Positions 1 through 64,000 are shown, numbered from the stretch's first letter. The stretch: DNA of 64,000 bases from Pristiophorus japonicus (GCF_044704955.1 NW_027254484.1:124001-188000), one strand, 5' to 3'. Program-made: numbers and translations. The notes: generated by a model from the letters alone, not told the origin.

Positions 1-350
1 TTAAAAGTGGGGTTACATTAACTACCCTCCAGTCCATAGGGACTGATCCAGAGTCTATCGAATGTTGGAAAATGACCACCAATGCATCCACTTTCTGTGG
101 TAGAGAATTCCACAGGTTCACAATTCTCTGGGTGAAGAAGTTTCTCCTCATCTCGGTCCTAAGTGGCTTACCCCTTATCCTTAGACTGTGTGAGCCCTGG
201 TTCTGGACTTCCCCAACATCGGGAACATTCTTCCTGCATCTAAACCTGTCCAGTCCCGTCAGAATTTGACATGTTTCCTATCAGATCCCCCTCTCATCCT
301 TCTAAACTCCAGCGAATATAAGCCCAGTCGATCCAGTCTCTCCTGATATG
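1..350 (-). mobile_element. CR1-clade LINE ORF2 fragments (fused)
   Basis: Identical to 13350-13700: ...VNLWNSLPQK fused to VDALVVIFQHSIDSGSVP. Confidence 0.85.
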
Positions 351-354
351 TCAG

Positions 355-905
355 AAATTAACCCCTCGATGATGTCCTCTCTCACCGGCTGCCCCAATTG
401 AAGCACAGCGAGCTATTTCGGAGATATATGAATGTAGAAAGATTCATATGGATCCCAGGTTATCCCAAGTGAGATATATTAATATACCGGCAGTAATATT
501 AACCCTTGAAGGTCACCCTCCCTCACACCTTGCCTCAATTGAGAGAGAGTTGGCGGTATTGAGGTATATATTAATATACAAAGATTAATATTAGTTCCTG
601 ATGATCCCAAGTGCTATACATGAGATATATTAATATACAAGCAGTAATATTAACCCTTGAAGGTCACCCTCCCTCACACCTTGCCTCAATTTAAGCAAAT
701 TGAGGAATTTTAAGATATTTCGAGCTCTATGCAAAGAAAAACATTAATATTGCTGCCTGGTGATCGCAAGTGCTATATATGAGATATATTAATATACGGG
801 CAGTAATATTAAGCCCTCACTGATGCCCTTCCTCCATCCCTGCCCCAATTGAGGGAGTTTTGGAGCTATTTCGAGGCATATTAATGTATAAACAGTAATA
901 TTGAC
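355..905. repeat. AT-rich degenerate ~150-bp satellite block (also ~9135-9690, 13700-14405, 16705-17260, 23820-24525, 34065-34765, 38785-39335, 43685-44233, 53605-54155, 56615-57162, 60425-60973)
   Basis: Recurrent cccaagtg..gagatatattaatatac..gcagtaatattaacccttgaaggtcaccctccc. Period of 151 bp between 13953 and 14104. Confidence 0.9.
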
Positions 906-964
906 CCCCAGCCACTTGGCCTCAGTGCCCCAGGGCCCTCTTGCAGCATTTATTCAGGTGCATT

Positions 965-1950
965 GATCCCTGGAGCACCCCACTAGTTACTGATTGCCGA
1001 CCCGAGAATGAACAGTTGTCCCGACTCTCTGTTCTCTGTTAGTGAGCCCATCCTCCATCCGTGCTAATATATTACCCCCAAACCCCGCGAGCTTTTATCC
1101 TGCGCAGTAACCTCTCATGTGGTACTTTATCGAAGGATTGCTCAAACTCCCTTCGGTCACTGAGCAGGGAAGGAGGTTTGGGTCCACTGGGATTCTCACA
1201 TCAGAAATAGGAGCCAGGAGTGGGCCATTCGGCCCCTCGAGCCCTGCTCCGCCATTTAATACGATCGTGGCCTGATCCGATCATGGACCCAGCTCCACTT
1301 ACCTGCCCGCCCCCTTATCGGTTAAGAAACTGTCTATCTCTGTCTTAAATATATTCAATGTCCCGGCTTCCACAGCTCTCTGAGGCAGCGAGTTCCACAG
1401 ATTTACAACCCTCAGAGAGAAGAAATTCCTCCTCATCTCAGTTTTAAATGGGCGGCCCCTTATTCTAAGACCATGCCCCCTAGTTCTAGTCTCCCCCATC
1501 AGTGGGAACATCCTCTCTGCATCCACCTTGTAGAGCCCCCCTCATAATCTGATATGTTTCGATAAGATCACCTCTCATTCTTCTGAACTCCAATGAGTAG
1601 AGGCCCAACCTCCTCAACCTTTCCTCATAAGTCAACCCCCTCATCCCCGGAATCGACCGAGTGAACCTTCTCTGAACTGCCTCCAAAGCAAAGTGTGTCC
1701 TTTGGTAAATACGGAGAGCAAAACTGTGCACGCAGTACTCCAGGTGTGGCCTCACCGATACCCTGTGTAACTGGAGCAAGACTTCCCTGCTTTTATACTC
1801 CATCCCCCTTTGCAATAAAGACCAAGATACCATTGGCCCTTCCTGATCACTTGCTGTACCTGCGTACTAACCTTTTGTGTTTCATGTACAAGTAACCCCC
1901 AGGTCCCGCTGTACTGCCGCACTTTGTAATCTTTCTCCGTTTAAATAATC
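965..1950 (-). mobile_element. CR1 RT-core fragment (965-1135) plus CR1 'A' 3' end (1200-1950)
   Basis: RPHLEYC, LYSLEFRRMRGDLIE, TRGH, FFS.RVVNLWNSLP; frameshifted. Confidence 0.9.
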
Positions 1951-2087
1951 GCTTCCTTCTTCTCTCGCAACCAGAGGCTCCATTCAGCTCACCAGGCAAT
2001 GTGGGGAAATGCAGCACACAAACATAACGCTCCCCATCGGGGGCAGAAAACCATCTTTTTATTGATCACAGCAGGTTTGTACAGCGG

Positions 2088-2574
2088 NNNNNNNNNNNNN
2101 NNNNNNNNNNNNNNNNNNNNNNNNNNNNNNNNNNNNNNNNNNNNNNNNNNNNNNNNNNNNNNNNNNNNNNNNNNNNNNNNNNNNNNNNNNNNNNNNNNNN
2201 NNNNNNNNNNNNNNNNNNNNNNNNNNNNNNNNNNNNNNNNNNNNNNNNNNNNNNNNNNNNNNNNNNNNNNNNNNNNNNNNNNNNNNNNNNNNNNNNNNNN
2301 NNNNNNNNNNNNNNNNNNNNNNNNNNNNNNNNNNNNNNNNNNNNNNNNNNNNNNNNNNNNNNNNNNNNNNNNNNNNNNNNNNNNNNNNNNNNNNNNNNNN
2401 NNNNNNNNNNNNNNNNNNNNNNNNNNNNNNNNNNNNNNNNNNNNNNNNNNNNNNNNNNNNNNNNNNNNNNNNNNNNNNNNNNNNNNNNNNNNNNNNNNNN
2501 NNNNNNNNNNNNNNNNNNNNNNNNNNNNNNNNNNNNNNNNNNNNNNNNNNNNNNNNNNNNNNNNNNNNNNNNNN
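2088..2574. other. N block (487 nt) in the Z1 3'UTR
   Basis: Flanks ...gtacagcgg / gtggagagac... Confidence 0.95.
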
Positions 2575-3612
2575 GTGGAGAGACAGAGCGACCATCACAT
2601 ACAACAGCAGACATTTTTCAGGAGGAGACCTTCGATCGAGAGCTGACTCGGGTCTCCCTCTCACCCCTCACCCCGCCATCTCGCATTCCGCGCTCCGGAT
2701 TTCAACCCGCTTCCCACGCCCGGCCCCCTGTTCCCAGGCGCGAACCCGCGGGTGCGGGCTATTCGACTGGAGGGGCATCAGGCCCACGGTTGAGACGTTG
2801 TTTCTCCGCCCTCCCCAGCGCGGAGGGAGGGAGGGGGTGGGCGGAGGGATGTGTGTGTGTGTGTGGGGAGAGGGTGGGGGGGAAAACACGTGTGGCCTTG
2901 CCCCTCCCCTCCCTACCCACCCGTGAGCCTTCCGGAGGTAGGGAGCAGGAACGCTCGTATCGTCTCACGCCCCCGGTCCGCGCGCCTGTGCGGGGCGTGT
3001 GCGAGAGCGGGGCTCTCTGTACCCGTCGGGGCAGTGGGGTGTGGGGGTAAGGAGCACGAGGTGATCTGATTGGTGTTTGCCTTGAGATGGGATTTGTGAG
3101 GGACGGGGTGGGGGAGAAGAGGGCGAAGGTGAGCACGGGCGGGGGAGGGGTCGAGTTCGAAGGGGTCAGGAGTCCGCTTGACCTCCTCCCCCCACCACAC
3201 CCCCCACCCCGTCCCCAACTTGCAAACGGCGCCCTCTTCAGGGGAGGTGGGGAGCGGGCGGCGATGCACGCCGCAGTCGAATAGCCCGCCGCGCGGCACG
3301 AGGGGCTTGTGGGGGTGCGGGGAGGCGGAGGAGCTGTGCGGTCCGCGATCGAGGGATAATTCAGTGTTTGCAACGTGCAGTAGGGGGAGGGGAGAGGGAA
3401 CAGCGGGGGAGGGGAGGAGAGGGGACGGAGGGGGAGGGGAGGAGAGGGGACGGAGGGGGAGGGGAGTTGGGACCAAGTTCCCACAAGACCCCCTCGACCT
3501 GCCCAGCAACGACCGGATACCAGCCCCGCCCACTCTTACCCCAACCCCTCCCCCGCCCTCCCGTGGGTGGGGGGAGGGGGTTAAGCCCCCACCGCAGCCC
3601 CCCCCCCCTCGG

Positions 3613-6537
3613 TCAGCGGGGACAGGGCAGGGCCCGGTCGGCCGCGTGGCGGGGGAGGTGACAGGCCAGCTCAAAGGCCCGGGCAAAAGCCTCGGGGCAG
3701 TGGGGGCAGGGAAAGGCGGGCTGGTGCTGGGCCGGGCGACGGCAACGGTGGCCGAGCAGCTCCACCAGCCGGCCAAAGTCGCGGCCGCACAGGGCGCAGT
3801 CGTAGGGGCGGGGGGCGGCAGGGGCATCCGGGCTGGCCGCCCGCGCAGGGAGGGGGGCGTCCGAGGTGCTGGCCTCCGGGGGTTGGCGGATGTCAGCATA
3901 CGGGGCCTCGTAGCCCTGCGGGAGTTCCAGGCCTTGGGCCTGCGGGGGTTCGCGGTTCTGCGCACGCGCCTCCTCTAAGCCCTGTGGGAGTTTGAGGCCT
4001 TGGGCCTGTGGTAGTTGCCGGCTCTGCGCATGCGCATTTTCCGAGCAATGTGGTAGTTGCCGGCTCTGCGCATGCGCATTTTCCGAGCAATGTGCTAGTT
4101 GCCGGCTCTGCGCATGCGCATTCTCCGAGCCCTGCGGCTGCTGCCGGCTCTGCGCATGCACATTCTCCGAGCAATGTGGTAGTTGCTGGCTCTGCGCATG
4201 CGCATTTCCCGAGCTATGTGGTAGTTGCCGGCTCTGCGCATGCGCATCCTCTGAGCCCTGCGGGAGTTGCCGGCTCTGCGCATGCGCATCCTCTGAGCCC
4301 TGCGGCAGTTGCCGGCTCTGCGCATGCGCATCCTCTGAGCCCTGCGGGAGTTGCCGGCTCTGCGCATGCGCATTCTCCGAACCCTGCGGCAGTTGCCGGC
4401 TCTGCGCATGCGCATTCTCCGAGCCCTGCGGCAGTTGCCGGCTCTGCGCATGCGCATTCTCCGAGCCCTGCGGGAGTTGCCGGCTCTGCGCATGCTGCTC
4501 CCCGGCCTCCGGCGTCGGCGGACCCCCCCGGCAGTGCCGGGCCCGGTGGCCCCTCAGCCCCCCGGGGGCCTTGAAGGCCCGGCCGCAGCGGGGGCAGGCG
4601 TGGGGGCGCAGCGGCGAGTGGGTGCGCCGGTGCCGGCCCAGCAGCGACGGGCGGGTGAAGCCCTTGCCGCACTGGCCGCAGACGTAGGGCCGCTCGCCCG
4701 TGTGGAGGCGGGCGTGGTGGTCGCGGTCCCGCCCGCTCTTGAAGCGGCGGGGGCAGGAGGGGCAGGGGTAGGGGGCCCGGTCCGAGTGGGCCCGCAGGTG
4801 GCGGGCCAGCTCGTAGGGGTAGCGGAAGCCCTTGTCGCAGTGCGGGCAAGCGTGCCGCGGCGGGTCGGGCAGGTGGCGCCCCCGGTGCTTGAGCAGGTAG
4901 GAGGCGGTCTTGAAGCGCTTGGGGCACAGCGGGCACGGGTAGGGGGTCTGGTCGGTGTGGGTGCGCAGGTGCTGGGCCAGGTAGTGGGGCCGCTTGAAGC
5001 GCTTGTCGCAGCGGGGGCAGGGGAAGGGGGCCTCGTCGGTGTGAGTCAACCGGTGGCGGAGCAGCTCGTAGGAGTTGACGAAGCCCTTGCCGCAGGCCGG
5101 GCAGGCGAAGGGCCGCTCGTCGGTGTGGCTGCGCTGGTGGCGGAGGAGGTGGGAGGCCCGGCTGTACCGGCGGCCGCACTGGGCGCAGCGGAAGGGGGCG
5201 GGCAGCGGCGGGTGCAGGGCCACCCCCGTTCCTCCCCGGTGCAACGGCGACGAGGAGGAGGCGGCGGAGGAGGAGGCGTGCTCCTGGAGCTCGGCCGCCC
5301 CCTCGAAGGTCAGCCGGCACAGCGGGCAGGAGAAGGGGCCCTGGCCGGCGTGGCCCGCCAGGTGGTGGCGGGAGAGGGCCTGGGGGTCGCAGAAGGACTT
5401 GCCGCACACGGCGCACTTGGGGCGCTCGGGGAGGGGGGCGGGCCCGTCCGCGTTGGGCGCCGTTGTCGGGCCGGGGGCCGGGCAGGGCGGGGCGGGCCCG
5501 AGCGAGGTCGGCGTCAAAGTTGGCGACGAGGCCCATGATGTCAACGTTGTCGTCAACGTTGGCGACGAGGCCAATGATGTCAATGTTGGCGACGAGGCCA
5601 ATGGCGTCAACGTTGGCGACGAGGCCAATGACGTCAACGTTGGCGACGAGGCCAATGACGTCAACGTTGGCGACGAGGCCAATGACGTCAACGTTGGCGA
5701 CGAGGCCAATGACGTCAACGTTGGCGACGAGGGAGCGATCAATTCGGCGGAGGCTGCCACCGGCGCCCTCTGGTGGGTGCGCCGGTGACGGCGGAGCGTG
5801 CCGGGGTCGCGGAAGGCCCGCAGGCACTCGGGGCACGGGTACGGCCGCTCGCCGGTGTGCGAGTACTGGTGCCGCAGGAGGTGGGCCGAGCGGCTGTAGC
5901 CCTTGCCGCAGGCCCGGCAGCGGAAGGGGCGGCGGGGCGGGGGCCCGTGCTCGGCCCGGCGGTGGCAGGCCAGGCCCCGGGGCCGGGCGAAGCGGCGGGG
6001 GCAGGCGTCGCAGCGGTAGGGGCGGGAGGGGTCGTGGACCAGGGCGTGGCGGGCCAGCTCGTAGCGCTCCTTGAAGGACTTGCCGCACTGGGGGCAGGCG
6101 AAGGCCGAGGGCCGCCCGTGACGGCGCCGGTGCTTCTGGAGGTACCAGGGCGTGGCGAAGCGCTTGGGGCACAGCGGGCACAGGTACGGGCGCTGGCGCT
6201 CGCAGGAGTGGCGGGCCAGCAGCTCGGGCAGGGCAAAGTCCAGGCCGCAGGAGCGGCAGCGCTGCGCGTCGCCGCGCGGGTCCGGCGCGCCGGCGGGCGG
6301 CGTCGTCGGCGGCGGCGACGGCGGCGGCCGGCAGCGGTGGCGGGCCAGCAGCGGGAAGTAGCCGAAGCCCCGCCCGCAGGAGGAGCAGATGAAGGGCGTG
6401 CGGGGCGGGTGCAGGGCCCGGTGGCGCCAGAGGGGCCAGGCGCCCGGGAAGCGCTTGCCGCAGTCGCCGCAGCGGTGGGGGCGGCGGGGGGCGGGCGGGC
6501 CGGGCCTCCCCCGGCGGAGCGGGGCCCGGCGCGTCAT
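3613..6537 (-). CDS. Multi-C2H2 zinc-finger protein, copy Z1 (974 aa, ~20 fingers, two internal VNTRs)
   Basis: ATG with A at -3 (gggacgATG). Repeated C-x2-C-x3-F/Y-x5-L-x2-H-x3-H motifs with TGERP/TDERP linkers. Three short H-x-C fingers. No KRAB/SCAN/BTB domain seen. AATAAA at 2058-2063 (minus). Confidence 0.9.
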   Translation of the reverse strand: MTRRAPLRRGRPGPPAPRRPHRCGDCGKRFPGAWPLWRHRALHPPRTPFICSSCGRGFGYFPLLARHRCRPPPSPPPTTPPAGAPDPRGDAQRCRSCGLDFALPELLARHSCERQRPYLCPLCPKRFATPWYLQKHRRRHGRPSAFACPQCGKSFKERYELARHALVHDPSRPYRCDACPRRFARPRGLACHRRAEHGPPPRRPFRCRACGKGYSRSAHLLRHQYSHTGERPYPCPECLRAFRDPGTLRRHRRTHQRAPVAASAELIAPSSPTLTSLASSPTLTSLASSPTLTSLASSPTLTSLASSPTLTPLASSPTLTSLASSPTLTTTLTSWASSPTLTPTSLGPAPPCPAPGPTTAPNADGPAPLPERPKCAVCGKSFCDPQALSRHHLAGHAGQGPFSCPLCRLTFEGAAELQEHASSSAASSSSPLHRGGTGVALHPPLPAPFRCAQCGRRYSRASHLLRHQRSHTDERPFACPACGKGFVNSYELLRHRLTHTDEAPFPCPRCDKRFKRPHYLAQHLRTHTDQTPYPCPLCPKRFKTASYLLKHRGRHLPDPPRHACPHCDKGFRYPYELARHLRAHSDRAPYPCPSCPRRFKSGRDRDHHARLHTGERPYVCGQCGKGFTRPSLLGRHRRTHSPLRPHACPRCGRAFKAPGGLRGHRARHCRGGPPTPEAGEQHAQSRQLPQGSENAHAQSRQLPQGSENAHAQSRQLPQGSENAHAQSRQLPQGSEDAHAQSRQLPQGSEDAHAQSRQLPQGSEDAHAQSRQLPHSSGNAHAQSQQLPHCSENVHAQSRQQPQGSENAHAQSRQLAHCSENAHAQSRQLPHCSENAHAQSRQLPQAQGLKLPQGLEEARAQNREPPQAQGLELPQGYEAPYADIRQPPEASTSDAPLPARAASPDAPAAPRPYDCALCGRDFGRLVELLGHRCRRPAQHQPAFPCPHCPEAFARAFELACHLPRHAADRALPCPR
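4011..4494. repeat. Coding 42-bp VNTR (HAQSRQLPQGSENA), 12 units; TGCGCATGCGCA array
   Basis: Counted from the translation; 10 perfect TGCGCATGCGCA palindromes. Confidence 0.95.
5511..5731. repeat. Coding 27-bp VNTR (SSPTLTSLA), 8 units; CCAAT/TGACGTCA array
   Basis: Unit GGCCAATGACGTCAACGTTGGCGACGA; 4 perfect TGACGTCA. Confidence 0.95.
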
Positions 6538-7779
6538 CGTCCCGGGGCGGGGGAGGGTGGGGGCGCTACCCGACCGCGCGCATCGCCAGCCGCCCGCGCC
6601 GTCTCCCTCCTCTCCCTCCCGCCTTCCGACGGAGTACCCACGTCTACCGCCCTTCTTCTCTCTCCCTCGCGATCGTCACAGCCGGCAAGGGGGGGGTCGC
6701 GAGTGGCGAGATAAATAGTCCGAGGCAGAGGGGGGGTCGATGGATTGTCCGTCGAGGCTTCTTGCTCCGGAGGGTGGGTGGGGCGTCCGTTCCGGGCCCC
6801 ACGGTTGTCGCTGTTGGTCGCCGCTGGGTCGAGTCGCTTGTCACGCGCCGGTCTCTTTGCGGGGGGAGGGGGAGCGGGGCGACGATCGCACACCTCTGCC
6901 AGCAAACCTCCTTTTCCCCCCCCCCCTCTCACCCCTGCCCGCAGACCCCCTTGCTCTTTTGTTTCTCCTCCTCCTCTTCTTCCCGAGGGGGGCGTTGGGG
7001 GGGAGGGGGGCAGGAGCGGGGGAACAGCCCACGGAGAGAGAGAGAGGTCGGTGTCTCTCGCTGGCCCTGCAAGGGGTGGGGGGGGGGGGGAGGAGGAAGA
7101 CGGGCGAGCGTTGAGACAATGCAAATGGCCGACGCGCGCGCTCCCCACCCCCGCACACACCCCCTCCCCCCCCACCACACAAGTCTCACAAGGGGGGGGG
7201 GTGGGGGAGTCTGGATTCCGAAACATTCCGAATTTTGGAACTCTGGATTTTAGACGCTCAAAAATCAATATTGACCCCGGAATATCCCAAGTGCCCCAAT
7301 TAATATATTTTGAGCTTTATCAATATAGAAGAGTAATATTATGCCCCTGAATAGTTCCCTCGCTGACTCATTCCCCCGTTGGTGTATTTACAGATAGATT
7401 GATGGACAGATATTGATCTCATTCCGTTGATATAAATCTATCTGTAAATATATTCAGATATTGTCCGCATGTTCCCCTCCCCCCGCCCCCCAGACACCAG
7501 ACTCCCGAAGCGAGCGCTCGACTCGGAACTCCTGCACGGGCGCGCGAGCCCCAAGGTGGGCAGAGGAAACGTTCTGCAAGGGACACACCCACTCCCCTGA
7601 TAAAGTGCAACACCCCCGCCCCCCCCACCGACACCTGGGAGTCCCCCCTGGCCCAAAGACCAGTCCGCCCCTAAGTGGTGGAAGTGCATCCGGGAGGGCA
7701 CCGAGCACCTCGTGTCTCGTCGCCAATTGCGAGCACGCAGAAAGCAAGCGCAAGGCAGCGGAAGGAGCGTGCGGCAAAC

Positions 7780-8338
7780 CTGTCCCACCCTCCCCTTTCC
7801 CTCAACGTCTATCTGTCCCACCCTCCCCTTCCCTCAACGTCTATCTGTCCCACCCTCCCCTTCCCTCAACGTCTATCTGTCCCACCCTCCCCTTCCCTCA
7901 ACGTCTCTCTGTCCCACCCTCCCCTTCCCTCAACGTCTATCTGTCCCACCCTCCCCTTCCCTCAACATCTATCTGTCCCACCCTCCCCTTTCCCTCAACG
8001 TCTATCTGTCCCACCCTCCCCTTTCCCTCAACGTCTCTCTGTCCCACTCTCCCCTTCCCTCAACGTCTATCTGTCCCACCCTCCCCTTCCCTCAACGTCT
8101 ATCTGTCCCACCCTCCCCTTCCCTCAACGTCTATCTGTCCCACCCTCCCCTTCCCTCAACGTCTATCTGTCCCACCCTCCCCTTCCCTCAACGTCTATCT
8201 GTCCCACCCTCCCCTTCCCTCAACGTCTATCTGTCCCACCCTCCCCTTCCCTCAACGTCTATCTGTCCCACCCTCCCCTTCCCTCAACGTCTATCTGTCC
8301 CACGCTCCCCTTTCCCTCAACGTCTATCTGTCCCACCC
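7780..8338. repeat. 32-bp G4 minisatellite, ~17 units
   Basis: Unit GGGAGGGTGGGACAGATAGACGTTGAGGGAAG (minus strand). Short ~2-unit versions at 11499-11576, 16215-16290 and 36895-36970. Confidence 0.95.
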
Positions 8339-8667
8339 CGTGACAGGGACTGCGACTCTCGTATTGCACTATTCAACCACCTTAGGCCTCGTTTTTAAGA
8401 GTGGAAACAAGTCTTCCTCGATTCCAAGGGGCTGCCTCTAACGATGAGATGTAGACAAGTGATATTAACCCTTATACTCATTCCGTTATATACTCTCTGC
8501 CCCAATTTAAACAGAGAGAGATATTTTACGATATTTAGACATTAATATTGATTCATTATCCCCAAGTGCTCCATGTGCGAAGTATGGGATGTATTAAAAT
8601 ACAGACACTAATATTAACCCCGTCAATATGCCCTCTCTCACTCACTGCCCCAATTACAGCATAGTTA

Positions 8668-9132
8668 GAGACATAGAAACATAGAAAATAGGTGCAGGAG
8701 CAGGCCATTGGGCCCTTCGAGCCTGCCCCACCATTCAATATGATCATGGCTGAACATGCAACTTCAGTACCCCACTCCTGCCTTCTCTCCATACCCCCCT
8801 GATCCCTTTAGCCGTAAGGGCCACATCTAACTCCCTTTTGAATATATCCAACGAACTGGCCCCCAACAACTTTCTGTGTTAGAGAATTCCACAGGTTCAC
8901 AATTCTCTGGGTGAAGAAGTTTCTCCTCATCTGGGTCCTAAATGGCTTACCCCTTATCCTTAGACTGTGTGAGCCCCTGGTTCTGGACTTCCCCAACATC
9001 GGGAACATTCTTCCCGCATCTAAACCTGTCCCGTCCCGTCAGAATTTGACATGTTTCCTATCAGATCCCCCCCTCATCCTTCTAAACTCCAGCGAATATA
9101 AGCCCAGTCGATCCAGTCTCTCCTGATATGTC
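8668..9132 (-). mobile_element. CR1 'B' 3' end (short form)
   Basis: (CATAGAAA)n tail; RNFFTQRIVNLWNSL. Confidence 0.9.
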
Positions 9133-9744
9133 AGAAATTAACCCCTCGATGATGTCCTTTCTCACCGGCTGCCCCAATTGAAGCACAGCGAGCTATTTCG
9201 GAGATATATGAATGTAGAAAGATTCATATGGATCCCAGGTTATCCCAAGTGAGATATATTAATATACCGGCAGTAATATTAACCCTTGAAGGTCACCCTC
9301 CCTCACACCTTGCCTCAATTGAGAGAGAGTTGGCGGTATTGAGGTATATATTAATATACAAAGATTAATATTGGTTCCTGATGATCCCAAGTGCTATACA
9401 TGAGATATATTAATATACAGGCAGTAATATTAACCCTTGAAGGTCACCCTCCCTCACACCTTGCCTCAATTTAAGCAAATTGAGGAATTTTAAGATATTT
9501 CGAGCTCGATGCAAAGAAAAACATTAATATTGCTGCCTGGTGATCGCAAGTGCTATATATGAGATATATTAATATACGGGCAGTAATATTAAGCCCTCAC
9601 TGATGCCCTCCCTCCATCCCTGCCCCAATTGAGGGAGTTTTGGAGCTATTTCGAGGCATATTAATGTATAAACAGTAATATTGACCCCCAGCCACTTGGC
9701 CTCAGTGCCCCAGGGCCCTCTTGCAGCATTTATTCAGGTGCATT

Positions 9745-10580
9745 GATCCCTGGGGCACCCCACTAGTTACTGATTGCCGACCCGAGAATGAACAGTTGTC
9801 CCGACTCTCTGTTCTCTGTTAGTGAGCCCATCCTCCATCCGTGCTAATATATTACCCCCAAACCCCGCGAGCTTTTATCCTGCGCAGTAACCTCTCATGT
9901 GGTACTTTATCGAAGGATTGCTCAAACTCCCTTCGGTCACTGAGCAGGGAAGGGGGTTTGGGTCCACTGGGATTCTCACATCAGAAACAGGAGCAGGAGT
10001 GGGCCATTCGGCCCCTCGAGCCCTGCTCCGCCATTTAATACCATCGTGGCCTGATCCGATCATGGACCCAGCTCCACTTCCCTGCCCGCCCCCTTATCGG
10101 TTAAGGAACTGTCTATCTCTGTCTTAAATATATTCAATGTCCCGGCTTCCACAGCTCTCTGAGGCAGCGAGTTCCACAGATTTACAACCCTCTGAGAGAA
10201 GAAATTCCTCCTCATCTCAGTTTTAAATGGGCGGCCCCTTATTCTAAGACCATGCCCCGTAGTTCTAGTCTCCCCCATCAGTGGGAACATCCTCTCTGCA
10301 TCCACCTTGTCGAGCCCCCCCCTCATAATCTGATACGTTTCGATAAGATCACCTCTCATTCTTCTGAACTCCAATGAGTAGAGGCCCAACCTCCTCAACC
10401 TTTCCTCATAAGTCAACCCCCCTCATCGCCGGAATCGACCGAGTGAACCTTCTCTGAACTGCCTCCAAAGCAAAGTGTGTCCTTTGGTAAATACGGAGAG
10501 CAAAACTGTGCACGCAGTACTCCAGGTGTGGCCTCACCAATACCCTGTGTAACTGGAGCAAGACTTCCCTGCTTTTGTAC
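9745..10580 (-). mobile_element. CR1 RT fragment plus CR1 'A' 3' end (empty-module form; also 14462-15295)
   Basis: ORF2 C-terminal motifs; 5' truncated at tacaaaagcagggaag. Confidence 0.9.
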
Positions 10581-10696
10581 ATACAGGGAATAATACACAA
10601 AGATTAAATATTGTTTCCCGATTATCCCAAGTTCCCCAATCGATACAGTCACAGAGATATTAATCGTTGGCGATGAATATTTAATCCCAGATTACT

Positions 10697-10700
<4 letters not shown>

Positions 10701-10729
<29 letters not shown>
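10701..10729. repeat. (CT)n/(GA)n microsatellite of the empty modules (also ~15417, 37742, 42656, 55578, 59384)
   Basis: Directly visible; length varies between copies. Confidence 0.9.
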
Positions 10730-10732
<3 letters not shown>

Positions 10733-10789
10733 ACTGCCCCAATTGCAGCCTATTGAGCTGTTTTAAGATATTTTGAGATCGAGTAAACG

Positions 10790-10982
10790 TACAGGTGGAG
10801 AGGCCGCTCCGGATTCCGGGGGATTTCCGGATTCCGGAACGTCGTTGCCTGGGCTGAGGTTGGTGTCGTTGGCCAGCTGAGGTTAGTGGGGGAGGGGAGA
10901 GCGGGGGAGCCGAGGAGGGCGGGGGGAGAGTCTGGATTCCGAAACATTCCGAATTTTGGAACTCTGGATTTTAGACGCTCAA
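10790..10982 (-). mobile_element. Tc1/mariner (Tigger-like) MITE remnant (copies 15503-15695, 37487-37680, 42402-42594, 55321-55515, 59130-59322)
   Basis: One end TA-CAGGTGGAG, other end TTGAGCG (CAGG lost). Internal TCCGGA/TTCGGA reiterations resemble CAGGTTGAG-ended Tigger MITEs. Family assignment is from recall only. Confidence 0.5.
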
Positions 10983-11904
10983 AAATCAATATTGACCCCG
11001 GAATATCCCAAGTGCCCCAATTAATATATTTTGAGCTTTATCAATATAGAAGAGTAATATTATGCCCCTGAATAGTTCCCTCGCTGACTCATTCCCCCGT
11101 TGGTGTATTTACAGATAGATTGATGGACAGATATTGATCTCATTCCGTTGATATAAATCTATCTGTAAATATATTCAGATATTGTCCGCATGTTCCCCTC
11201 CCCCGCCCCCCAGACACCAGACTCCCGAAGCGAGCGCTCGACTCGGAACTCCTGCACGGGCGCGCGAGCCCCAAGGTGGGCAGAGGAAACGTTCTGCAAG
11301 GGACACACCCACTCCCCTGATAAAGTGCAACATCCCCGCCCCCCACCGACACCTGGGAGTCCCCCCTGGGCCCAAAGACCAGTCCGCCCCTAAGTGGTGG
11401 AAGTGCATCCGGGAGGGCGCCGAGCACCTCGAGTCTCGTCGCCAATTGCGAGCACGCAGAAAGCAAGCGCAAGGCAGCGGAAGGAGCGTGCGGCAAACCT
11501 GTCCCACCCTCCCCTTTCCCTCAACGTCTATCTGTCCCACCCTCCCCTTTCCCTCAACGTCTATCTGTCCCACCCCGTGACAGGGACTGCGACTCCCGTA
11601 TTGGACTATTCAGCCTCCTTAGGCCTCGTTTTTAAGAGTGGAAACAAGTCTTCCTCGATTCCAAGGGGCTTCCTCTAACGATGAGATATAGAGAAGTGAT
11701 ATTAACCCTTATACTCATTCCGTTATATACTCTCTGCCCCAATTTAAACAGAGAGAGATATTTTACGATATTTAGACATTAATATTGACTCATTATCCCC
11801 AAGTGCTCCATGTGCGAAGTATGAGATGTATTAAAATACAGACACTAATATTAACCCCGTCAATATGCCCTCTCTCACTCACTGCCCCAATTACAGCATA
11901 GTTA

Positions 11905-13700
11905 GAGACATAGAAACATAGAAAATAGGTGCAGGAGCAGGCCATTGGGTCCTTCGAGCCTGCCCCACCATTCAATATGATCATGGCTGATCATGCAACT
12001 TCAGTACCCCACTCCTGCCTTCTCTCCATACCCCCCTGATCCCTTTAGCCGTAAGGGCCACATCTAACTCCCTTTTGAATATATCCAACGAACTGGCCCC
12101 CAACAACTTTCTGTGGCAGAGAATTCCACAGGTTCGCAATTCTCTGGTTGAAGAAGTTTCTCCTCATCTCGGTCCAAAATGGCTGACCCCTTATCCTTAG
12201 ACTGTGTGAGCCCTGGTTCTGGACTTCCCCAACATCGGGAACATTCTTCCCGCATCTAAACCTGTCCAGTCCCGTCAGAATTTTATATGTTTCTATGAGA
12301 TCCCCTCTCATTCTTCTAAACTCCAGTGAATATAAGCCCAGTCGATCCAGTCTTTCTTCATATGTCAGTCCTGCCATCCCGGGAATCAGTCTGGTGAACC
12401 TTCGCTGCACTCCCTCAATAGCAAGAATGTCCTTCCTCAGATTAGGAGACCAAAACTGAACACAATACTCCAGGTGTGGCCTCACCAAGGCCCTGTACAA
12501 CTGCAGTAAGACCTCCCTGCTCCTATACTCAAATCCTCTCGCTATGAAGGCCAACATACCATTTGCCTTCTTCACCGCCTGCTGTACCTGCATGGCCAAC
12601 TTTCAATGACTGATGTCCCATGACACCCAGGTCTCGTTGCACCTCCCCTTTTCCTAATCTGTCACCATTCAGATAATATTCTGCCTTCCTGTTTTTACCA
12701 CCAAAGTGGATCACCTCACATTTATCCACATTATACTGCATCTGCCATGCATTTGCCCCACTCACCTAACCTGTCCAAGTCACCCTGCAGCCTCTTAGCA
12801 TCCTCCTCACAGCTCACACCGCCACCCAGCTTAGTGTCATCTGTAAACTTGGAGATATTACACTCAATTCCTTCGTCTAAATCATTAATGTATATTGTAA
12901 ATAGCTGGGGTCCCAGCACTGATCCCTGCGGCACCCCACTAGTCACTGCCTGCCGTTCTGAAAAGGACCCGTTTATCCCGACTCTCTGCTTCCTGTCTGA
13001 CAACCAGTTCTCGATCCCCGTCAGTACATTACCCCCAATACCATGTGCTTTAATGTTGCACACCAATCTCTTGTGTGGGACCTTGTCAAAAGCCTTTTGT
13101 CAGTCCAAATACACCACATCCACTGGTTCTCCCTTGTCCACTCTACGAGTTACATCCTCCAAAAATCCCAGAAGATCTTTCAAGCATGATTTCCCCTTTC
13201 ATAAATCCATGTTGACTTGGACCGATCCTGTCCCTGCTTTCCAAATGCGCTGCTATTACATCTTAAATAATTGATTCCAACATTTTCCCCACTACTGATG
13301 TCAGGCTAACCGGTCTATAATTACCCATTTTCTATCTCCCTCCTTTTTTAAAAGTGGGGTTACATTAACTACCCTCCAGTCCATAGGGACTGATCCAGAG
13401 TCTATCGAATGTTGGAAAATGACCACCAATGCATCCACTTTCTGTGGTAGAGAATTCCACAGGTTCACAATTCTCTGGGTGAAGAAGTTTCTCCTCATCT
13501 CGGTCCTAAGTGGCTTACCCCTTATCCTTAGACTGTGTGAGCCCTGGTTCTGGACTTCCCCAACATCGGGAACATTCTTCCCGCATCTAAACCTGTCCAG
13601 TCCCGTCAGAATTTGACATGTTTCCTGTCAGATCCCCCTCTCATCCTTCTAAACTCCAGCGAATATAAGCCCAGTCGATCCAGTCTCTCCTGATATGTCA
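11905..13700 (-). mobile_element. CR1 'B' long fragment (RT domain to tail), decayed
   Basis: [28 protein letters not shown](A/T)DDTKL; stop in YLD*QKAF and frameshifts. Confidence 0.92.
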
Positions 13701-16700: not shown

Positions 16701-17314
16701 TGTCAGAAATTAACCCCTCTATGATCTCCTCTCTCACCGGCTGCCCCAATTGAAGCACAGCGAGCTATTTCGGAGATATATGAATGTAGAAAGATTCATA
16801 TGGATCCCAGGTTATCCCAAGTGAGATATATTAATATACCGGCAGTAATATTAACCCTTGAAGGTCACCCTCCCTCACACCTTGCCTCAATTGAGAGAGA
16901 GTTGGCGGTATTGAGGTATATATTAATATACAAAGATTAATATTAGTTCCTGATGATCCCAAGTGCTATACATGAGATATATTAATATACCGGCAGTAAT
17001 ATTAACCCTTGAAGGTCACCCTCCCTCACACCTTGCCTCAATTTAAGCAAATTGAGGAATTTTAAGATATTTCGAGCTCTATTCAAAGAAAAACATTAAT
17101 ATTGCTGCCTGGTGATCGCAAGTGCTATATATGAGATATATTAATATACGGGCAGTAATATTAAGCCCTCACTGATGCCCTCCCTCCATCCCTGCCTCAA
17201 TTGAGGGAGTTTTGGAGCTATTTCGAGACATATTAATGTACAAACAGTAATATTGACCCCCAGCCACTTGGCCTCAGTGCCCCAGGGCCCTCTTGCAGCA
17301 TTTATTCAGGTGCA

Positions 17315-19662: not shown

Positions 19663-22600
19663 TCAGCGGGGACAGGGCAGGGCCCGGTCGGCCGCGTGGC
19701 GGGGGAGGTGACAGGCCAGCTCAAAGGCCCGGGCAAAAGCCTCGGGGCAGTGGGGGCAGGGAAAGGCGGGCTGGTGCTGGGCCGGGCGACGGCAACGGTG
19801 GCCGAGCAGCTCCACCAGCCGGCCAAAGTCGCGGCCGCACAGGGCGCAGTCGTAGGGGCGGGGGGCGACAGGGGAGTCCGGGCTGGCCGCCCGCGCAGGG
19901 AGGGGGGCGTCCGAGGTGCTGGCCTCCGGGGGTTGGCGGATGTCAGCATACGGGGCCTCGTAGCCCTGCGGGAATTCCAGGCCTTGGGCCTGCGGGGGTT
20001 CGCGGTTCTGCGCACGCGCCTCCTCTAAGCCCTGTGGGAGTTTGAGGCCTTGGGCCTGTGGTAGTTGCCGGTTCTGCGCATGCGCATTTTCCGAGCAATG
20101 TGGTAGTTGCCGGCTCTGCGCATGCGCATTTTCCGAGCAATGTGCTAGTTGCCGGCTCTGCGCATGCGCATTCTCCGAGCCCTGCGGCTGCTGCCGGCTC
20201 TGCGCATGCACATTCTCCGAGCAATGTGGTAGTTGCTGGCTCTGCGCATGCGCATTTTCCGAGCTATGTGGTAGTTGCCGGCTCTGCGCATGCGCATCCT
20301 CTGAGCCTTGCGGCAGCTGCCGGCTCTGCGCATGCGCATCCTCTGAGCCCTGCGGCAACTGCCGGCTCTGCGCATGCACATTCTCCGAGCAATGTGGTAG
20401 TTGCCGGCTCTGCGCATGCGCATTTTCCGAGCTATGTGGAAGTTGCTGGCTCTGCGCATGCGCATTCTCCGAGCCCTGCGGCAGTTGCCGGCTCTGCGTA
20501 TGCGCATTCTCCGAGCTATGTGGAAGTTGCCGGCTCTGCGTATGCGCATTCTCCGAGCCCTGCGGCAGTTGCCGGCTCTGCGCATGCGCATTCTCCGAGC
20601 CCTGCGGCAGTTGCCGGCTCTGCGCATGCTGCTCCCCGGCCTCCGGCGTCGGCGGCCCCCCCCGGCAGTGCCGGGCCCGGTGGCCCCTCAGCCCCCCGGG
20701 GGCCTTGAAGGCCCGGCCGCAGCGGGGGCAGGCGTGGGGGCGCAGCGGCGAGTGGGTGCGCCGGTGCCGGCCCAGCAGCGAAGGGCGGGTGAAGCCCTTG
20801 CCGCACTGGCCGCAGACGTAGGGCCGCTCGCCCGTGTGGAGGCGGGCGTGGTGGTCGCGGTCCCGCCCGCTCTTGAAGCGGCGGGGGCAGGAGGGGCAGG
20901 GGTAGGGGGCCCGGTCCGAGTGGGCCCGCAGGTGGCGGGCCAGCTCGTAGGGGTAGCGGAAGCCCTTGTCGCAGTGCGGGCAAGCGTGCCGCGGCGGGTC
21001 GGGCAGGTGGCGCCCCCGGTGCTTGAGCAGGTAGGAGGCGGTCTTGAAGCGCTTGGGGCACAGCGGGCACGGGTAGGGGGTCTGGTCGGTGTGGGTGCGC
21101 AGGTGCTGGGCCAGGTAGTGGGGCCGCTTGAAGCGCTTGTCGCAGCGGGGGCAGGGGAAGGGGGCCTCGTCGGTGTGAGTCAACCGGTGGCGGAGCAGCT
21201 CGTAGGAGTTGACGAAGCCCTTGCCGCAGGCCGGGCAGGCGAAGGGCCGCTCGTCGGTGTGGCTGCGCTGGTGGCGGAGGAGGTGGGAGGCCCGGCTGTA
21301 CCGGCGGCCGCACTGGGCGCAGCGGAAGGGGGCGGGCAGCGGCGGGTGCAGGGCCACCCCCGTTCCTCCCCGGTGCAACGGCGACGAGGAGGCGGCGGAG
21401 GAGGAGGCGTGCTCCTGGAGCTCGGCCGCCCCCTCGAAGGTCAGCCGGCACAGCGGGCAGGAGAAGGGGCCCTGGCCGGCGTGGCCCGCCAGGTGGTGGC
21501 GGGAGAGGGCCTGGGGGTCGCAGAAGGACTTGCCGCACACGGCGCACTTGGGGCGCTCGGGGAGGGGGGCGGGCCCGTCCGCGTTGGCCGCCGTTGTCGG
21601 GCCGGGGGCCGGGCAGGGCGGGGCGGGCCCGAGCGAGGTCGGCGTCAACGTTGGCGACGAGGCCCATGATGTCAACGTTGGCGACGAGGCCAATGGCGTC
21701 AACGTTGGCGACGAGGCCAATGACGTCAACGTTGGCGACGAGGCCAATGACGTCAACGTTGGCGACGAGGCCAATGACGTCAACGTTGGCGACGAGGCCA
21801 ATGACGTCAACGTTGGCGACGAGGCCAATGACGTCAACGTTGGCGACGAGGCCAATGACGTCAACGTTGGCGACGAGGCCAATGACGTCAACGTTGGCGA
21901 CGAGGGAGCGATCAATTCGGCGGAGGCTGCCACCGGCGCCCTCTGGTGGGTGCGCCGGTGACGGCGGAGCGTGCCGGGGTCGCGGAAGGCCCGCAGGCAC
22001 TCGGGGCACGGGTACGGCCGCTCGCCGGTGTGCGAGTACTGGTGCCGCAGGAGGTGGGCCGAGCGGCTGTAGCCCTTGCCGCAGGCCCGGCAGCGGAAGG
22101 GGCGGCGGGGCGGGGGCCCGTGCTCGGCCCGGCGGTGGCAGGCCAGGCCCCGGGGCCGGGCGAAGCGGCGGGGGCAGGCGTCGCAGCGGTAGGGGCGGGA
22201 GGGGTCGTGGACCAGGGCGTGGCGGGCCAGCTCGTAGCGCTCCTTGAAGGACTTGCCGCACTGGGGGCAGGCGAAGGCCGAGGGCCGCCCGTGACGGCGC
22301 CGGTGCTTCTGGAGGTACCAGGGCGTGGCGAAGCGCTTGGGGCACAGCGGGCACAGGTACGGGCGCTGGCGCTCGCAGGAGTGGCGGGCCAGCAGCTCGG
22401 GCAGGGCAAAGTCCAGGCCGCAGGAGCGGCAACGCTGCGCGTCGCCGCGCGGGTCCGGCGCGCCGGCGGGCGGCGTCTGCGGCGGCGGCGGCCGGCAGCG
22501 GTGGCGGGCCAGCAGCGGGAAGTAGCCGAAGCCCCGCCCGCAGGAGGAGCAGATGAAGGGCGTGCGGGGCGGGTGCAGGGCCCGGTGGCGCCAGAGGGGC

Positions 22601-22701
22601 CAGGCGCCCGGGAAGCGCTTGCCGCAGTCGCCGCAGCGGTGGGGGCGGCGGGGGGCGGGCGGGCCGGGCCTCCCCCGGCGGAGCGGGGCCCGGCGCGTCA
22701 T
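19663..22701 (-). CDS. Multi-C2H2 zinc-finger protein, copy Z2 (1012 aa)
   Basis: Near-identical to Z1, differing mainly in VNTR copy number. In-frame TGA 141 nt upstream of the ATG. AATAAA at 18422-18427 (minus). Confidence 0.9.
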   Translation of the reverse strand: MTRRAPLRRGRPGPPAPRRPHRCGDCGKRFPGAWPLWRHRALHPPRTPFICSSCGRGFGYFPLLARHRCRPPPPQTPPAGAPDPRGDAQRCRSCGLDFALPELLARHSCERQRPYLCPLCPKRFATPWYLQKHRRRHGRPSAFACPQCGKSFKERYELARHALVHDPSRPYRCDACPRRFARPRGLACHRRAEHGPPPRRPFRCRACGKGYSRSAHLLRHQYSHTGERPYPCPECLRAFRDPGTLRRHRRTHQRAPVAASAELIAPSSPTLTSLASSPTLTSLASSPTLTSLASSPTLTSLASSPTLTSLASSPTLTSLASSPTLTSLASSPTLTPLASSPTLTSWASSPTLTPTSLGPAPPCPAPGPTTAANADGPAPLPERPKCAVCGKSFCDPQALSRHHLAGHAGQGPFSCPLCRLTFEGAAELQEHASSSAASSSPLHRGGTGVALHPPLPAPFRCAQCGRRYSRASHLLRHQRSHTDERPFACPACGKGFVNSYELLRHRLTHTDEAPFPCPRCDKRFKRPHYLAQHLRTHTDQTPYPCPLCPKRFKTASYLLKHRGRHLPDPPRHACPHCDKGFRYPYELARHLRAHSDRAPYPCPSCPRRFKSGRDRDHHARLHTGERPYVCGQCGKGFTRPSLLGRHRRTHSPLRPHACPRCGRAFKAPGGLRGHRARHCRGGPPTPEAGEQHAQSRQLPQGSENAHAQSRQLPQGSENAHTQSRQLPHSSENAHTQSRQLPQGSENAHAQSQQLPHSSENAHAQSRQLPHCSENVHAQSRQLPQGSEDAHAQSRQLPQGSEDAHAQSRQLPHSSENAHAQSQQLPHCSENVHAQSRQQPQGSENAHAQSRQLAHCSENAHAQSRQLPHCSENAHAQNRQLPQAQGLKLPQGLEEARAQNREPPQAQGLEFPQGYEAPYADIRQPPEASTSDAPLPARAASPDSPVAPRPYDCALCGRDFGRLVELLGHRCRRPAQHQPAFPCPHCPEAFARAFELACHLPRHAADRALPCPR
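20061..20629. repeat. Coding 42-bp VNTR, 14 units
   Basis: Same unit; 9 perfect palindromes. Confidence 0.95.
21641..21904. repeat. Coding 27-bp VNTR, 10 units
   Basis: 7 perfect TGACGTCA. Confidence 0.95.
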
Positions 22702-48558: not shown

Positions 48559-49570
48559 CGACCTCGCTCGGGCCCGCCCCGCCCTGCCCGGCCCCCGGCC
48601 CGACAACGGCGGCCAACGCGGACGGGCCCGCCCCCCTCCCCGAGCGCCCCAAGTGCGCCGTGTGCGGCAAGTCCTTCTGCGACCCCCAGGCCCTCTCCCG
48701 CCACCACCTGGCGGGCCACGCCGGCCAGGGCCCCTTCTCCTGCCCGCTGTGCCGGCTGACCTTCGAGGGGGCGGCCGAGCTCCAGGAGCACGCCTCCTCC
48801 TCCGCCGCCTCCTCGTCGCCGTTGCACCGGGGAGGAACGGGGGTGGCCCTGCACCCGCCGCTGCCCGCCCCCTTCCGCTGCGCCCAGTGCGGCCGCCGGT
48901 ACAGCCGGGCCTCCCACCTCCTCCGCCACCAGCGCAGCCACACCGACGAGCGGCCCTTCGCCTGCCCGGCCTGCGGCAAGGGCTTCGTCAACTCCTACGA
49001 GCTGCTCCGCCACCGGTTGACTCACACCGACGAGGCCCCCTTCCCCTGCCCCCGCTGCGACAAGCGCTTCAAGCGGCCCCACTACCTGGCCCAGCACCTG
49101 CGCACCCACACCGACCAGACCCCCTACCCGTGCCCGCTGTGCCCCAAGCGCTTCAAGACCGCCTCCTACCTGCTCAAGCACCGGGGGCGCCACCTGCCCG
49201 ACCCGCCGCGGCACGCTTGCCCGCACTGCGACAAGGGCTTCCGCTACCCCTACGAGCTGGCCCGCCACCTGCGGGCCCACTCGGACCGGGCCCCCTACCC
49301 CTGCCCCTCCTGCCCCTGCCGCTTCAAGAGCGGGCGGGACCGCGACCACCACGCCCGCCTCCACACGGGCGAGCGGCCCTACGTCTGCGGCCAGTGCGGC
49401 AAGGGCTTCACCCGCCCGTCGCTGCTGGGCCGGCACCGGCGCACCCACTCGCCGCTGCGCCCCCACGCCTGCCCCCGCTGCGGCCGGGCCTTCAAGGCCC
49501 CCGGGGGGCTGAGGGGCCACCGGGCCCGGCACTGCCGGGGGGGGCCGCCGACGCCGGAGGCCGGGGAGCA

Positions 49571-50184
49571 GCATGCGCAGAGCCGGCAACTGCCGCAGGG
49601 CTCGGAGAATGCGCATGCGCAGAGCCGGCAACTACCACATAGCTCGGAAAATGCGCATGCGCAGAGCCGGCAACTACCGCATTGCTCGGAGAATGTGCAT
49701 GCGCAGAGTCGGCAGCTGCCGCAGGGCTCGGAGAATGTGCATGCGCAGAGCCGGCAGCTGCCGCAGGGCTCAGAGGATGCGCATGCGCAGAGCCGGCAGC
49801 TGCCGCAGGGCTCGGAGAATGCGCATGCGCAGAGCCGGCAACTACCACATAGCTCGGAAAATGCGCATGCGCAGAGCCGGCAACTACCACATTGCTCGGA
49901 AAATGCGCATGCGCAGAGTCGGCAGCTGCCGCAGGGCTCGGAGAATGCGCATGCGCAGAGCCGGCAGCTGCCGCAGGGCTCGGAGAATGCGCATGCGCAG
50001 AGCCGGCAACTACCACATAGCTCGGAAAATGCGCATGTGCAGAGCCAGCAACTACCGCAGGGCTCGGAGAATGCGCATGCGCAGAGCCGGCAACTAGCAC
50101 ATTGCTCGGAAAATGCGCATGCGCAGAGCCGGCAACGACCACATTGCTCGGAAAATGCGCATGCGCAGAGCCGGCAACTACCAC
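49571..50184. repeat. Coding 42-bp VNTR, 15 units
   Basis: Same unit; 11 perfect palindromes. Confidence 0.95.
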
Positions 50185-51595
50185 AGGCCCAAGGCCTCAA
50201 ACTCCCACAGGGCTTAGAGGAGGCGCATGCGCAGAACCGCGAACCCCCGCAGGCCCAAGGCCTGGAACTCCCGCAGGGCTACGAGGCCCCGTATGCTGAC
50301 ATCCGCCAACCCCCGGAGGCCAGCACCTCGGACGCCCCCCTCCCTGCGCGGGCGGCCAGCCCGGACGCCCCCGCCGCCCCCCGCCCCTACGACTGCGCCC
50401 TGTGCGGCCGCGACTTTGGCCGGCTGGTGGAGCTGCTCGGCCACCGTTGCCGTCGCCCGGCCCAGCACCAGCCCGCCTTTCCCTGCCCCCACTGCCCCGA
50501 GGCTTTTGCCCGGGCCTTTGAGCTGGCCTGTCACCTCCCCCGCCACGCGGCCGACCGGGCCCTGCCCTGTCCCCGCTGACCGAGGGGTGGGGGGGCTGGG
50601 TTGGGGGCTTAACCCCCTCCCCCCACCCACGGGAGGGCGGGGGAGGGGTTGGGTAAGCGTGGGCGGGGCTAGGATCCGGTCGTTGCTGGGCAGGTCGAGG
50701 GGGTCTTGTGGGGACTTGGTCCCAACTCCCCTCCCCCTCCGTCCCCTCTCCTCCCCTCCCCCTCCGTCCCCTCTCCTCCCCTCCCCCGCCGTTCCCTCTC
50801 CCCTCCCCCTACTGCACGTTGCAAACACTGAATTATCCCTCGATCGCGGACCGCACAGCTCCTCCGCCTCCCCGCACCCCCACAACCCCCACAAGCCCCT
50901 CGTGCCACGCGGCGGGCTATTCGACTGCGGCGTGCATGGCCGCCCGCTCCCCACCTCCCCTGAAGAGGGCGCCGTTTGCAAGCTGGGGTCAGGGTGGGGG
51001 GTCTGGTGGGGGGAGGAGGTCAAGCGGACTCCTGACCCCTTCGAACTCGACCCCTCCCCTGCCCGTGCTCACCTTCGCCCTCTTCTCCCCTACCCCGTCC
51101 CTCACAAACCCCATCTCAAGGCAAACACCAATCAGATCACCTCGTGCTCCTTACCCCCACCCCCCCTGCCCCGACGGGTACAGAGAGCCCCGCTCTCGCA
51201 CACGCCCCGCACAGGCGCGCGGACCGGGGGCGTGAGACGATACGAGCTTTCCTGCTCCCTACCTCCGGAAGGCTCACGTGTGGGTGGGGAGGGGAGGGGC
51301 AAGGCCACACGTGTTTTCCCCCCCACCCTCTCCCCACACACACACACATCCCCCCGCCCACCCCCCTCCCTCCCTCCGCGCTGGGGAGGGCGGAGAAACA
51401 ACGTCTCAACCGTGGGCCTGATGCCCCTCCAGTCGAATAGCCCGCACCCGCGGGTTCGCGCCTGGGAACAGGGGGCCGGGCGTGGGAATCGGGTTGAAAT
51501 CCGGAGCGCGGAATGCGAGACGGCGGGGTGAGAGGGAGACCCGAGTCAGCTCTCGATCGAAGGTCTCCTCCTGAAAAATGTCTGCTGTTGTATGT

Positions 51596-63577: not shown

Positions 63578-64000
63578 ATGACGCGCCGGGCCCCGCTCCG
63601 CCGGGGGAGGCCCGGCCCGCCCGCCCCCCGCCGCCCCCACCGCTGCGGCGACTGCGGCAAGCGCTTCCCGGGCGCCTGGCCCCTCTGGCGCCACCGGGCC
63701 CTGCACCCGCCCCGCACGCCCTTCATCTGCTCCTCCTGCGGGCGGGGCTTCGGCTACTTCCCGCTGCTGGCCCGCCACCGCTGCCGGCCGCCGCCGTCGC
63801 CGCCGCCGACGACGCCGCCCGCCGGCGCGCCGGACCCGCGCGGCGACGCGCAGCGCTGCCGCTCCTGCGGCCTGGACTTTGCCCTGCCCGAGCTGCTGGC
63901 CCGCCACTCCTGCGAGCGCCAGCGCCCGTACCTGTGCCCGCTGTGCCCCAAGCGCTTCGCCACGCCCTGGTACCTCCAGAAGCACCGGCGCCGTCACGGG
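63578..64000 (+). CDS. ZNF copy Z5, 5' part (runs off the window)
   Basis: gggacgATGacgcgccgg; translates MTRRAPLRRGRPG...CGDCGKRF..., matching the Z1 N-terminus. Confidence 0.88.
   Translation, partial: MTRRAPLRRGRPGPPAPRRPHRCGDCGKRFPGAWPLWRHRALHPPRTPFICSSCGRGFGYFPLLARHRCRPPPSPPPTTPPAGAPDPRGDAQRCRSCGLDFALPELLARHSCERQRPYLCPLCPKRFATPWYLQKHRRRHG

Follow-up and report, generated by a model that had tools for sequence, protein, structure and literature searches.

At transcription-factor sites within exons, known as duons, codons double as a binding site, and duons have been defined as single sites by footprints. Coding variable number tandem repeats (VNTRs) are generally regarded as variants of protein length, and arrays of binding motifs as non-coding elements. 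We analysed a 64,000-nt stretch of the Pristiophorus japonicus genome (GCF_044704955.1 NW_027254484.1:124001-188000), hereafter the window, within which all positions are given and in which copies of one C2H2 zinc-finger open reading frame (ORF), named Z1-Z5, contain two coding tandem repeats: a 42-bp unit with an NRF1-type palindrome and a 27-bp unit with a cAMP response element (CRE) and a CCAAT box. The human TERRA promoter provides a described parallel for the first of these, as its 29-bp subtelomeric repeats form a methylation-controlled tandem NRF1 array at which binding rises on demethylation (PMC6600276). Like TERRA, the 42-bp repeat is a CpG-rich tandem array with an NRF1 site in most units. 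However, the TERRA repeats are non-coding, lie upstream of a mapped start and have measured binding, whereas the 42-bp array codes for protein within a 974-amino-acid ORF and lies about 2 kb beyond the ATG; it also differs from duons in that its sites are multiplied by a VNTR and are predicted from sequence. For the 27-bp array, the model is the CRE-bearing IAPLTR1/1a repeats, which are silent when methylated and bound by CREB1 on demethylation (PMC9729108, in which the CRE is also so named). Both have a perfect CRE in repeated DNA, but IAPLTR1/1a are dispersed long terminal repeat promoters and the 27-bp repeat is a coding tandem array. At the protein level, the only level compared, Callorhinchus milii XP_042200556.1 (P0123) likewise has an in-frame tandem peptide repeat adjoining finger clusters, although its 7-amino-acid unit is unrelated. 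In the open-access literature, judged by titles and the starts of abstracts, no description of NRF1 or CRE sites in a coding VNTR was found. The gene copies and their repeats are as follows.

3613..6537, minus strand: Z1, an uninterrupted ORF of 974 amino acids with C2H2 finger clusters and two repeat linkers between them (ORF call, Pfam)
4000..4503, minus strand: Z1 42-bp coding array of ENAHAQSRQLPQGS-type units (11 full, one partial) with 10 perfect palindromes at 4025-4456
3940..3975, minus strand: older diverged unit EEARAQNREPPQ, differing from the array unit at 8 of 36 bases and still fitting GCGCNTGCGC
3874..3909, minus strand: most diverged unit EAPYADIRQPPE, differing at 13 of 36 bases, NRF1 site absent
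5545..5733, minus strand: Z1 27-bp coding array (ASSPTLTSL), perfect CRE TGACGTCA at 5629, 5656, 5683 and 5710
19663..22701, minus strand: Z2, a full-length copy (ORF call)
20050-20637: Z2 42-bp array, 9 palindromes in 13 full units
21691-21906: Z2 27-bp array, 7 CREs
28307..31150, plus strand: Z3, a 5'-truncated copy without a start codon (ORF and copy comparison)
28991-29152: Z3 27-bp array, 3 CREs
30218-30763: Z3 42-bp array, 10 palindromes in 12 full units
47274..50579, plus strand: Z4, a copy in which a deletion matching Z1 ~6400-6872 takes out the ATG and the first finger (copy comparison)
48309-48497: Z4 27-bp array, 5 CREs
49563-50192: Z4 42-bp array, 11 palindromes in 14 full units

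The 42-bp repeats of Z1-Z4 are coding minisatellites with an in-frame period and 11, 13, 12 and 14 full units, respectively (the tandem-repeat call for Z1 spans 4005-4495, with a period of 42 and 11.7 copies). When the units were cut in codon register, a perfect TGCGCATGCGCA was present in 40 of the 50 full units, whereas the partial unit that opens each of the four arrays lacks it. A previous model-made account of this DNA (the sequence-only reading) had counted 10, 9, 10 and 11 palindromes in Z1-Z4 at 42-bp spacing, and an exact motif count gave the same numbers. Its placement of the palindrome in frame on the N/D-A-H-A-Q codons of the linker was also correct, as was the alternating purine-pyrimidine run, since the 12-mer alternates strictly. 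The statement that the other half of the unit varies freely did not hold, as positions 30, 33, 36 and 37 take mostly two linked forms (GGGG in 17 and AATT or AATA in 20 of 46 internal units). The least variable stretch of the unit extends from about position 5 to 26, wider than the 12-bp motif, and six of the 42 sliding 12-mers share the minimum of three variant alleles, one of them starting near the motif end. The window contains 40 exact copies of TGCGCATGCGCA against none in each of 100 shuffles. However, this contrast cannot serve as a measure of surprise, since a single founder unit gave rise to all 40 sites; the units are about 90% alike, so that the palindromes are not independent. In Z4, the version of the older diverged unit has a perfect 10-mer.

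Both TGCGCATGCGCA and GCGCNTGCGC represent the NRF1 consensus (PMC10810270), in agreement with the sequence-only reading, and the methylation sensitivity that it ascribed to NRF1 agrees with a report in which NRF1 and CREB1 are methylation-sensitive activators in cells (PMC9729108). By this consensus, 40 of the 50 full units hold an NRF1 site, at which NRF1 would be expected to bind in unmethylated DNA. The other 10 units have a broken motif, always owing to a non-synonymous change, at unit position 8 (7 units), 13 (2 units) or 14 (1 unit). In the numbering of PMC10810270, mapped onto the array by us, these changes are C4T in 7 units, G9A in 2 (the mirror of C6T) and C10T in 1 (the mirror of G5A). 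C4T is reported to weaken binding about 6-fold, and the loss of affinity is about 4-fold for C6T and 2-fold for G5A (PMC10810270). The C>T change at position 8, C4T, is found on one background in all four copies and is tandemly doubled in Z3 and Z4.

Because 10 of the 50 motifs are broken, the C4T unit has spread to all four copies and the CRE is broken in 8 of the 27 units of the 27-bp arrays, we favor a reading, to which we give about an even chance, in which both repeats are hairpin-prone coding minisatellites and the motifs are passengers. Stretches of two or three units from both arrays folded better than shuffles (z -3.1, -3.3 and -3.6), as expected for tandem palindromes, and the flanking 32-bp repeat gave z +0.5. 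Hairpins favor slippage. Under this reading, the gene would be a lineage-specific C2H2 zinc-finger gene that has multiplied recently, and the array a young in-frame minisatellite in its linker. A founder unit with a 12-bp palindrome, perhaps one CpG change away from the Ala-Arg-Ala codons of the older unit (in either direction), may have grown to 11-14 copies by slippage and unequal exchange, aided by palindrome pairing between neighboring units, after which segmental duplication would have multiplied the gene together with its array. The only firm constraint would be a unit length divisible by three; NRF1 sites would ride along, with damaged units spreading as readily as perfect ones.

The second motif-bearing repeat is the real oddity of the locus and the best reason to retain the regulatory idea. 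In the 27-bp unit, TGACGTCA overlaps the CCAAT box and there is also a CAACGTTG palindrome; we take TGACGTCA to be a CRE and the CCAAT box to be of the NF-Y type. Of the 27 units, 19 have an intact CRE and all 27 an intact CCAAT box. The 27-bp arrays account for every CRE of the window (19). We compared the repeats with a panel of ten promoter motifs, fixed after the data had been seen. Within 2575-7300, every match to the NRF1, CRE and NF-Y motifs fell within the arrays or the diverged unit. Seven of the eight other repeat units in the window had no panel motif, the eighth being a related 66-bp unit. Promoter-factor motifs in both coding repeats are unlikely by chance. A duller account may apply, namely that self-complementary units expand and dimeric factors read palindromes, although this leaves the CCAAT box unexplained. 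Any 12-bp palindrome is expected in 3% of random 42-mers and an 8-bp palindrome in 20% of random 27-mers.

Several results weigh against the motifs being passengers. In 200,000 trials, some panel motif turned up in 1.3% of shuffled 42-bp units and in 0.95% of shuffled 27-bp units, and two panel motifs in 0.003% of the latter. Third codon positions varied at none of four sites inside the NRF1 motif and at eight of ten outside (Fisher p=0.015, post hoc). The AAT/GAT and CAT codons of the motif end in T in 50 of 50 units, in an ORF whose non-repeat part has 95% GC at third positions (GC3) and spells His as CAC in 49 of 49 codons. In the diverged EEARAQ unit, only the degenerate N departs from the motif core (p=0.07). 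Finally, the block 2575-7300 is CpG-island-like (GC 0.65-0.79, CpG observed/expected 0.65-1.2), which could reflect low germline methylation of the exon.

The sequence-only reading had proposed comparing synonymous variation inside and outside the motif across units, and the outcome was divided: synonymous sites inside the motif are invariant, as just described, but an affinity-damaging variant has spread and the contrast over all positions is smaller (3 of 12 variable inside vs. 16 of 30 outside, p=0.09). All counts in these tests are small. In favor of selection, 1 of 8 non-CpG positions varied inside vs. 13 of 24 outside (p=0.047); by alleles, 3 of the 24 variants fell inside the motif (p=0.057). 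Much of the variation outside consists of the two linked unit types, and other array codons also often end in A or T. By the symmetry of the palindrome, C4T is equivalent to a synonymous change at position 15 that is absent from all units, and of the other unseen synonymous changes, the one at position 9 has the mildest measured effect and the one at position 12 still fits the consensus. Therefore, the pattern of missing synonymous changes does not match their effects on NRF1 affinity. When changes were counted along a spanning tree, 7 lay inside the motif and 34 outside, but this count was set aside, as it includes recombined units repeatedly. Overall, the evidence for selection on the motif is weak and mixed, and leans against selection unit by unit, leaving room for selection on the total dose.

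Methylation was approached by proxy, through transitions at CpG relative to other C/G positions between gene copies. The excess at CpG was 3.7-fold in coding sequence (5/458 vs. 3/1012, p=0.12), 4.0-fold in the 3' region (7/151 vs. 6/503, p=0.015) and 2.3-fold in the flanks (7/159 vs. 29/1478, p=0.08), so that this mutation spectrum, with its low counts, gives no sign that the gene is better protected from methylation than its flanks. In absolute terms, CpG transitions are rarer in coding sequence than in the flanks (p=0.016), a difference confounded by protein selection. Within the array, two of four CpG positions inside the motif and three of six outside were variable. Gene bodies of the elephant shark are generally hypermethylated (PMC5437953), and we infer a methylated gene body here as well.

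The sequence-only reading had also pointed out that 42 bp is four helical turns. This is correct as arithmetic (4 x 10.5), but no preference for phase was found in comparable arrays. A scan of public contigs for three palindromes at 24-54-bp spacing yielded 44 loci with at least three palindromes (35 in metagenome contigs, 9 in prokaryote genomes, and none in the viral contigs scanned). These gave 16 regular arrays with periods of 21-50 bp, taken as one per BLAST family, with one family entered twice for its two periods and irregular clusters excluded. Five of the 16 lay within 1 bp of a whole turn, where 29% would be expected (p=0.5), although the 44 loci are not a clean negative control if many of the hosts are animals with NRF1 homologs. 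Among in-frame lengths from 12 to 99, 4 of 30 fit a whole turn. NRF1-palindrome minisatellites recur at arbitrary periods, and 42 bp is thus no sign of phasing.

Some of these loci have features of their own. Palindrome arrays stand beside terminal-repeat-like words in 13 metagenome loci, inside both ends in six (L010, L015, L030, L034, L038 and L044) and with one end in seven (L013, L016, L028, L029, L032, L040 and L043). The elements are about 250-360 bp long, are bounded by inverted words starting CAGTGTT and enclose 28-38-bp arrays of the palindrome; they look like small non-autonomous DNA transposons. Seven Kitasatospora/Streptomyces loci (L001, L002, L004-L006, L008, L009 at 601-677) have three perfect TGCGCATGCGCA at 30-35-bp spacing with dissimilar spacers, and could be the operator array of a bacterial regulator. 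A metagenome-assembled genome of Arenicellales (L007, 257-970) has a 25-bp tandem repeat in 28.7 copies, and 8 of its units contain the palindrome.

The suggestion of the sequence-only reading that the repeat may be selected as DNA can be extended to both coding arrays, which would act within the gene as a promoter or enhancer, or would prevent methylation of the 4.7-kb CpG-rich exon. We consider this unlikely. The locus would then be a dual-coded cassette of about 10 NRF1 and 4-7 CRE/NF-Y sites, some 1.1 kb apart, whose dose scales with unit and gene number, and single broken units would for that reason be tolerated. The occurrence of three promoter-type motifs in two separate repeats, the confinement of their matches within 2575-7300 to the arrays or the diverged unit, the unbroken CCAAT boxes and the synonymous invariance all speak for selection, as do the methylation sensitivity of the activators NRF1 and CREB1 (PMC9729108) and the TERRA precedent (PMC6600276). 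However, damaging variants have spread in both arrays, there is no phase signal, the CpG mutation spectrum shows no protection from methylation, the protein searches described below gave no ortholog that would show a lasting arrangement, and the motif panel was post hoc within a very large scan. The more specific proposal that the zinc-finger gene's VNTRs (about 10 NRF1; CRE/NF-Y) form a methylation-sensitive internal promoter or enhancer, tuned by repeat and gene number and made of bases that are also translated, strikes us as rather unlikely. Cause and effect might also be reversed, if binding of NRF1 and CREB/NF-Y, itself of no benefit, opened germ-line chromatin and so created a hot spot of recombination, repeat growth, GC-biased conversion and gene duplication. 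That the expanded units are those with motifs, that GC3 is 95% next to flanks of about 45-50% GC, and that the window is pieced together from direct and inverted segments of 92-99% identity would fit such a hot spot, but the motif-free 32-bp flank repeat expanded as well and most duplication breakpoints lie outside the arrays, which leaves it improbable.

Two further explanations concern where the palindrome came from. The founder units may be captured non-coding DNA, derived from a promoter or from the internal array of a small transposon and inserted in frame; the motifs and odd codons would then be explained without any present-day function, in a manner compatible with passenger motifs and different only as to origin. 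Array codons do depart from the gene's codon usage, under which the peptide yields the perfect 12-mer in 1 of 100,000 draws, and the 13 transposon-like metagenome loci, six of them with both ends, are in line with capture. On the other hand, there is a gradation from the array units to older in-frame units in this linker, no donor is present within the window, and the sole similarity to the 44 loci (69% over 101 bp) is probably the shared palindrome, so capture seems quite improbable. Selection on the peptide, a His/Gln/Ser-rich spacer or interaction tract, would make the palindrome a side effect of encoding Asn-Ala-His-Ala-Gln. Several residues, among them His and Gln, are invariant, uniform synonymous codons produce the perfect 12-mer in 1.6% of draws, and the coding parts of the copies diverge less than their 3' regions. 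We nevertheless regard this as very improbable, since 11 of the 19 variable positions are first or second codon positions and no protein relative of the repeat was found in word-index, HMMER (best 150 of 4575 matches) and atlas searches. The locus is real and, judging from its sequence, a regulatory role of the coding arrays is possible. If the arrays were bound and active, repeat number would alter transcription-factor dose and linker length together, and four copies with different unit numbers would offer a natural comparison. If the motifs are passengers, as we favor, the locus shows that palindromic units can yield large clusters of perfect sites, presumably needing silencing by methylation.

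The remaining features of the gene are the following.

63578..64000, plus strand: Z5, the 5' end of a fifth copy that runs off the window, its 423 coding bases identical to Z1 (sequence comparison)
7067..7100, minus strand: candidate 3' splice site (polypyrimidine tract and CAG), present in Z1, Z2, Z4 and Z5 (predicted from sequence)
2058..2063, minus strand: candidate polyadenylation signal AATAAA, past an N gap (predicted from sequence)

The Z1 ORF opens with an ATG at 6537 (minus strand), in a context with A at -3, and scores 244 bits with zf-C2H2 PF00096 (cut-off 25.2). A Pfam search of this ORF found neither KRAB nor any other domain outside the C2H2 finger families. Because of the candidate acceptor at about 7067-7100 and the AATAAA at 2058, the Z1 ORF is probably a single long last exon. 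Contigs of public runs X5 and X6 (one study, library type unrecorded) end at 7068, where the candidate acceptor lies, one of them adding 49 unmatched letters, and were not counted as evidence; DNA-type contigs continue through 7068. Orthologs were sought by word-index protein searches and an atlas search, which returned only generic finger arrays or unrelated repeats and do not imply absence, and by a HMMER scan with the C-terminal 305 amino acids, which gave no ortholog among the best 150 of 4575 matches. The best local identity of any protein match was at most 47% among the matches listed.

Outside both arrays, Z2-Z4 differ from Z1 by 10-15 codons. Z3 and Z4, which are probably very young truncated copies, have their first Met at residues 260 and 426, respectively; their frames are open and both arrays are kept despite loss of the start codon. 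All four N gaps fall at one shared spot in the 3' region of four gene copies. Pure assembly error is an unlikely source of the copies, because 34 of 38 variant rows from public runs are alleles of other copies inside the window and the joint of the Z4 deletion (6399-6878) is present in one contig of run X3. Four public runs gave 40 listed rows, with 22 more outside the listing, and 38 were used after two in a high-copy spot were dropped; the source sample may itself be represented by X1 and X3, so that support from the runs is not independent. Among the contig pieces listed, none extends across the 42-bp array. Contig depths in X1 and X3 step roughly as the copy structure predicts, but were not used since depth is no copy number.

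In the finger region at 4600-5100, X5 contigs match parts of the sequence with different letters between, which suggests that this organism has a further, diverged paralog. The sequence at 7500-8340, like its copies, consists of a repeated element followed by the 32-bp pyrimidine-rich tandem repeat and is matched by very many contigs in all four runs; it looks like a high-copy family of the short interspersed element (SINE) or satellite type. Rfam had no matches over window positions 1-19000. At 12045-12602 on the minus strand, and in similar frames, there are decayed coding fragments resembling long interspersed elements, which we take to be CR1-type and which point to a vertebrate, probably a cartilaginous fish, with 60% identity over 57 amino acids to a predicted protein of Heterodontus francisci.

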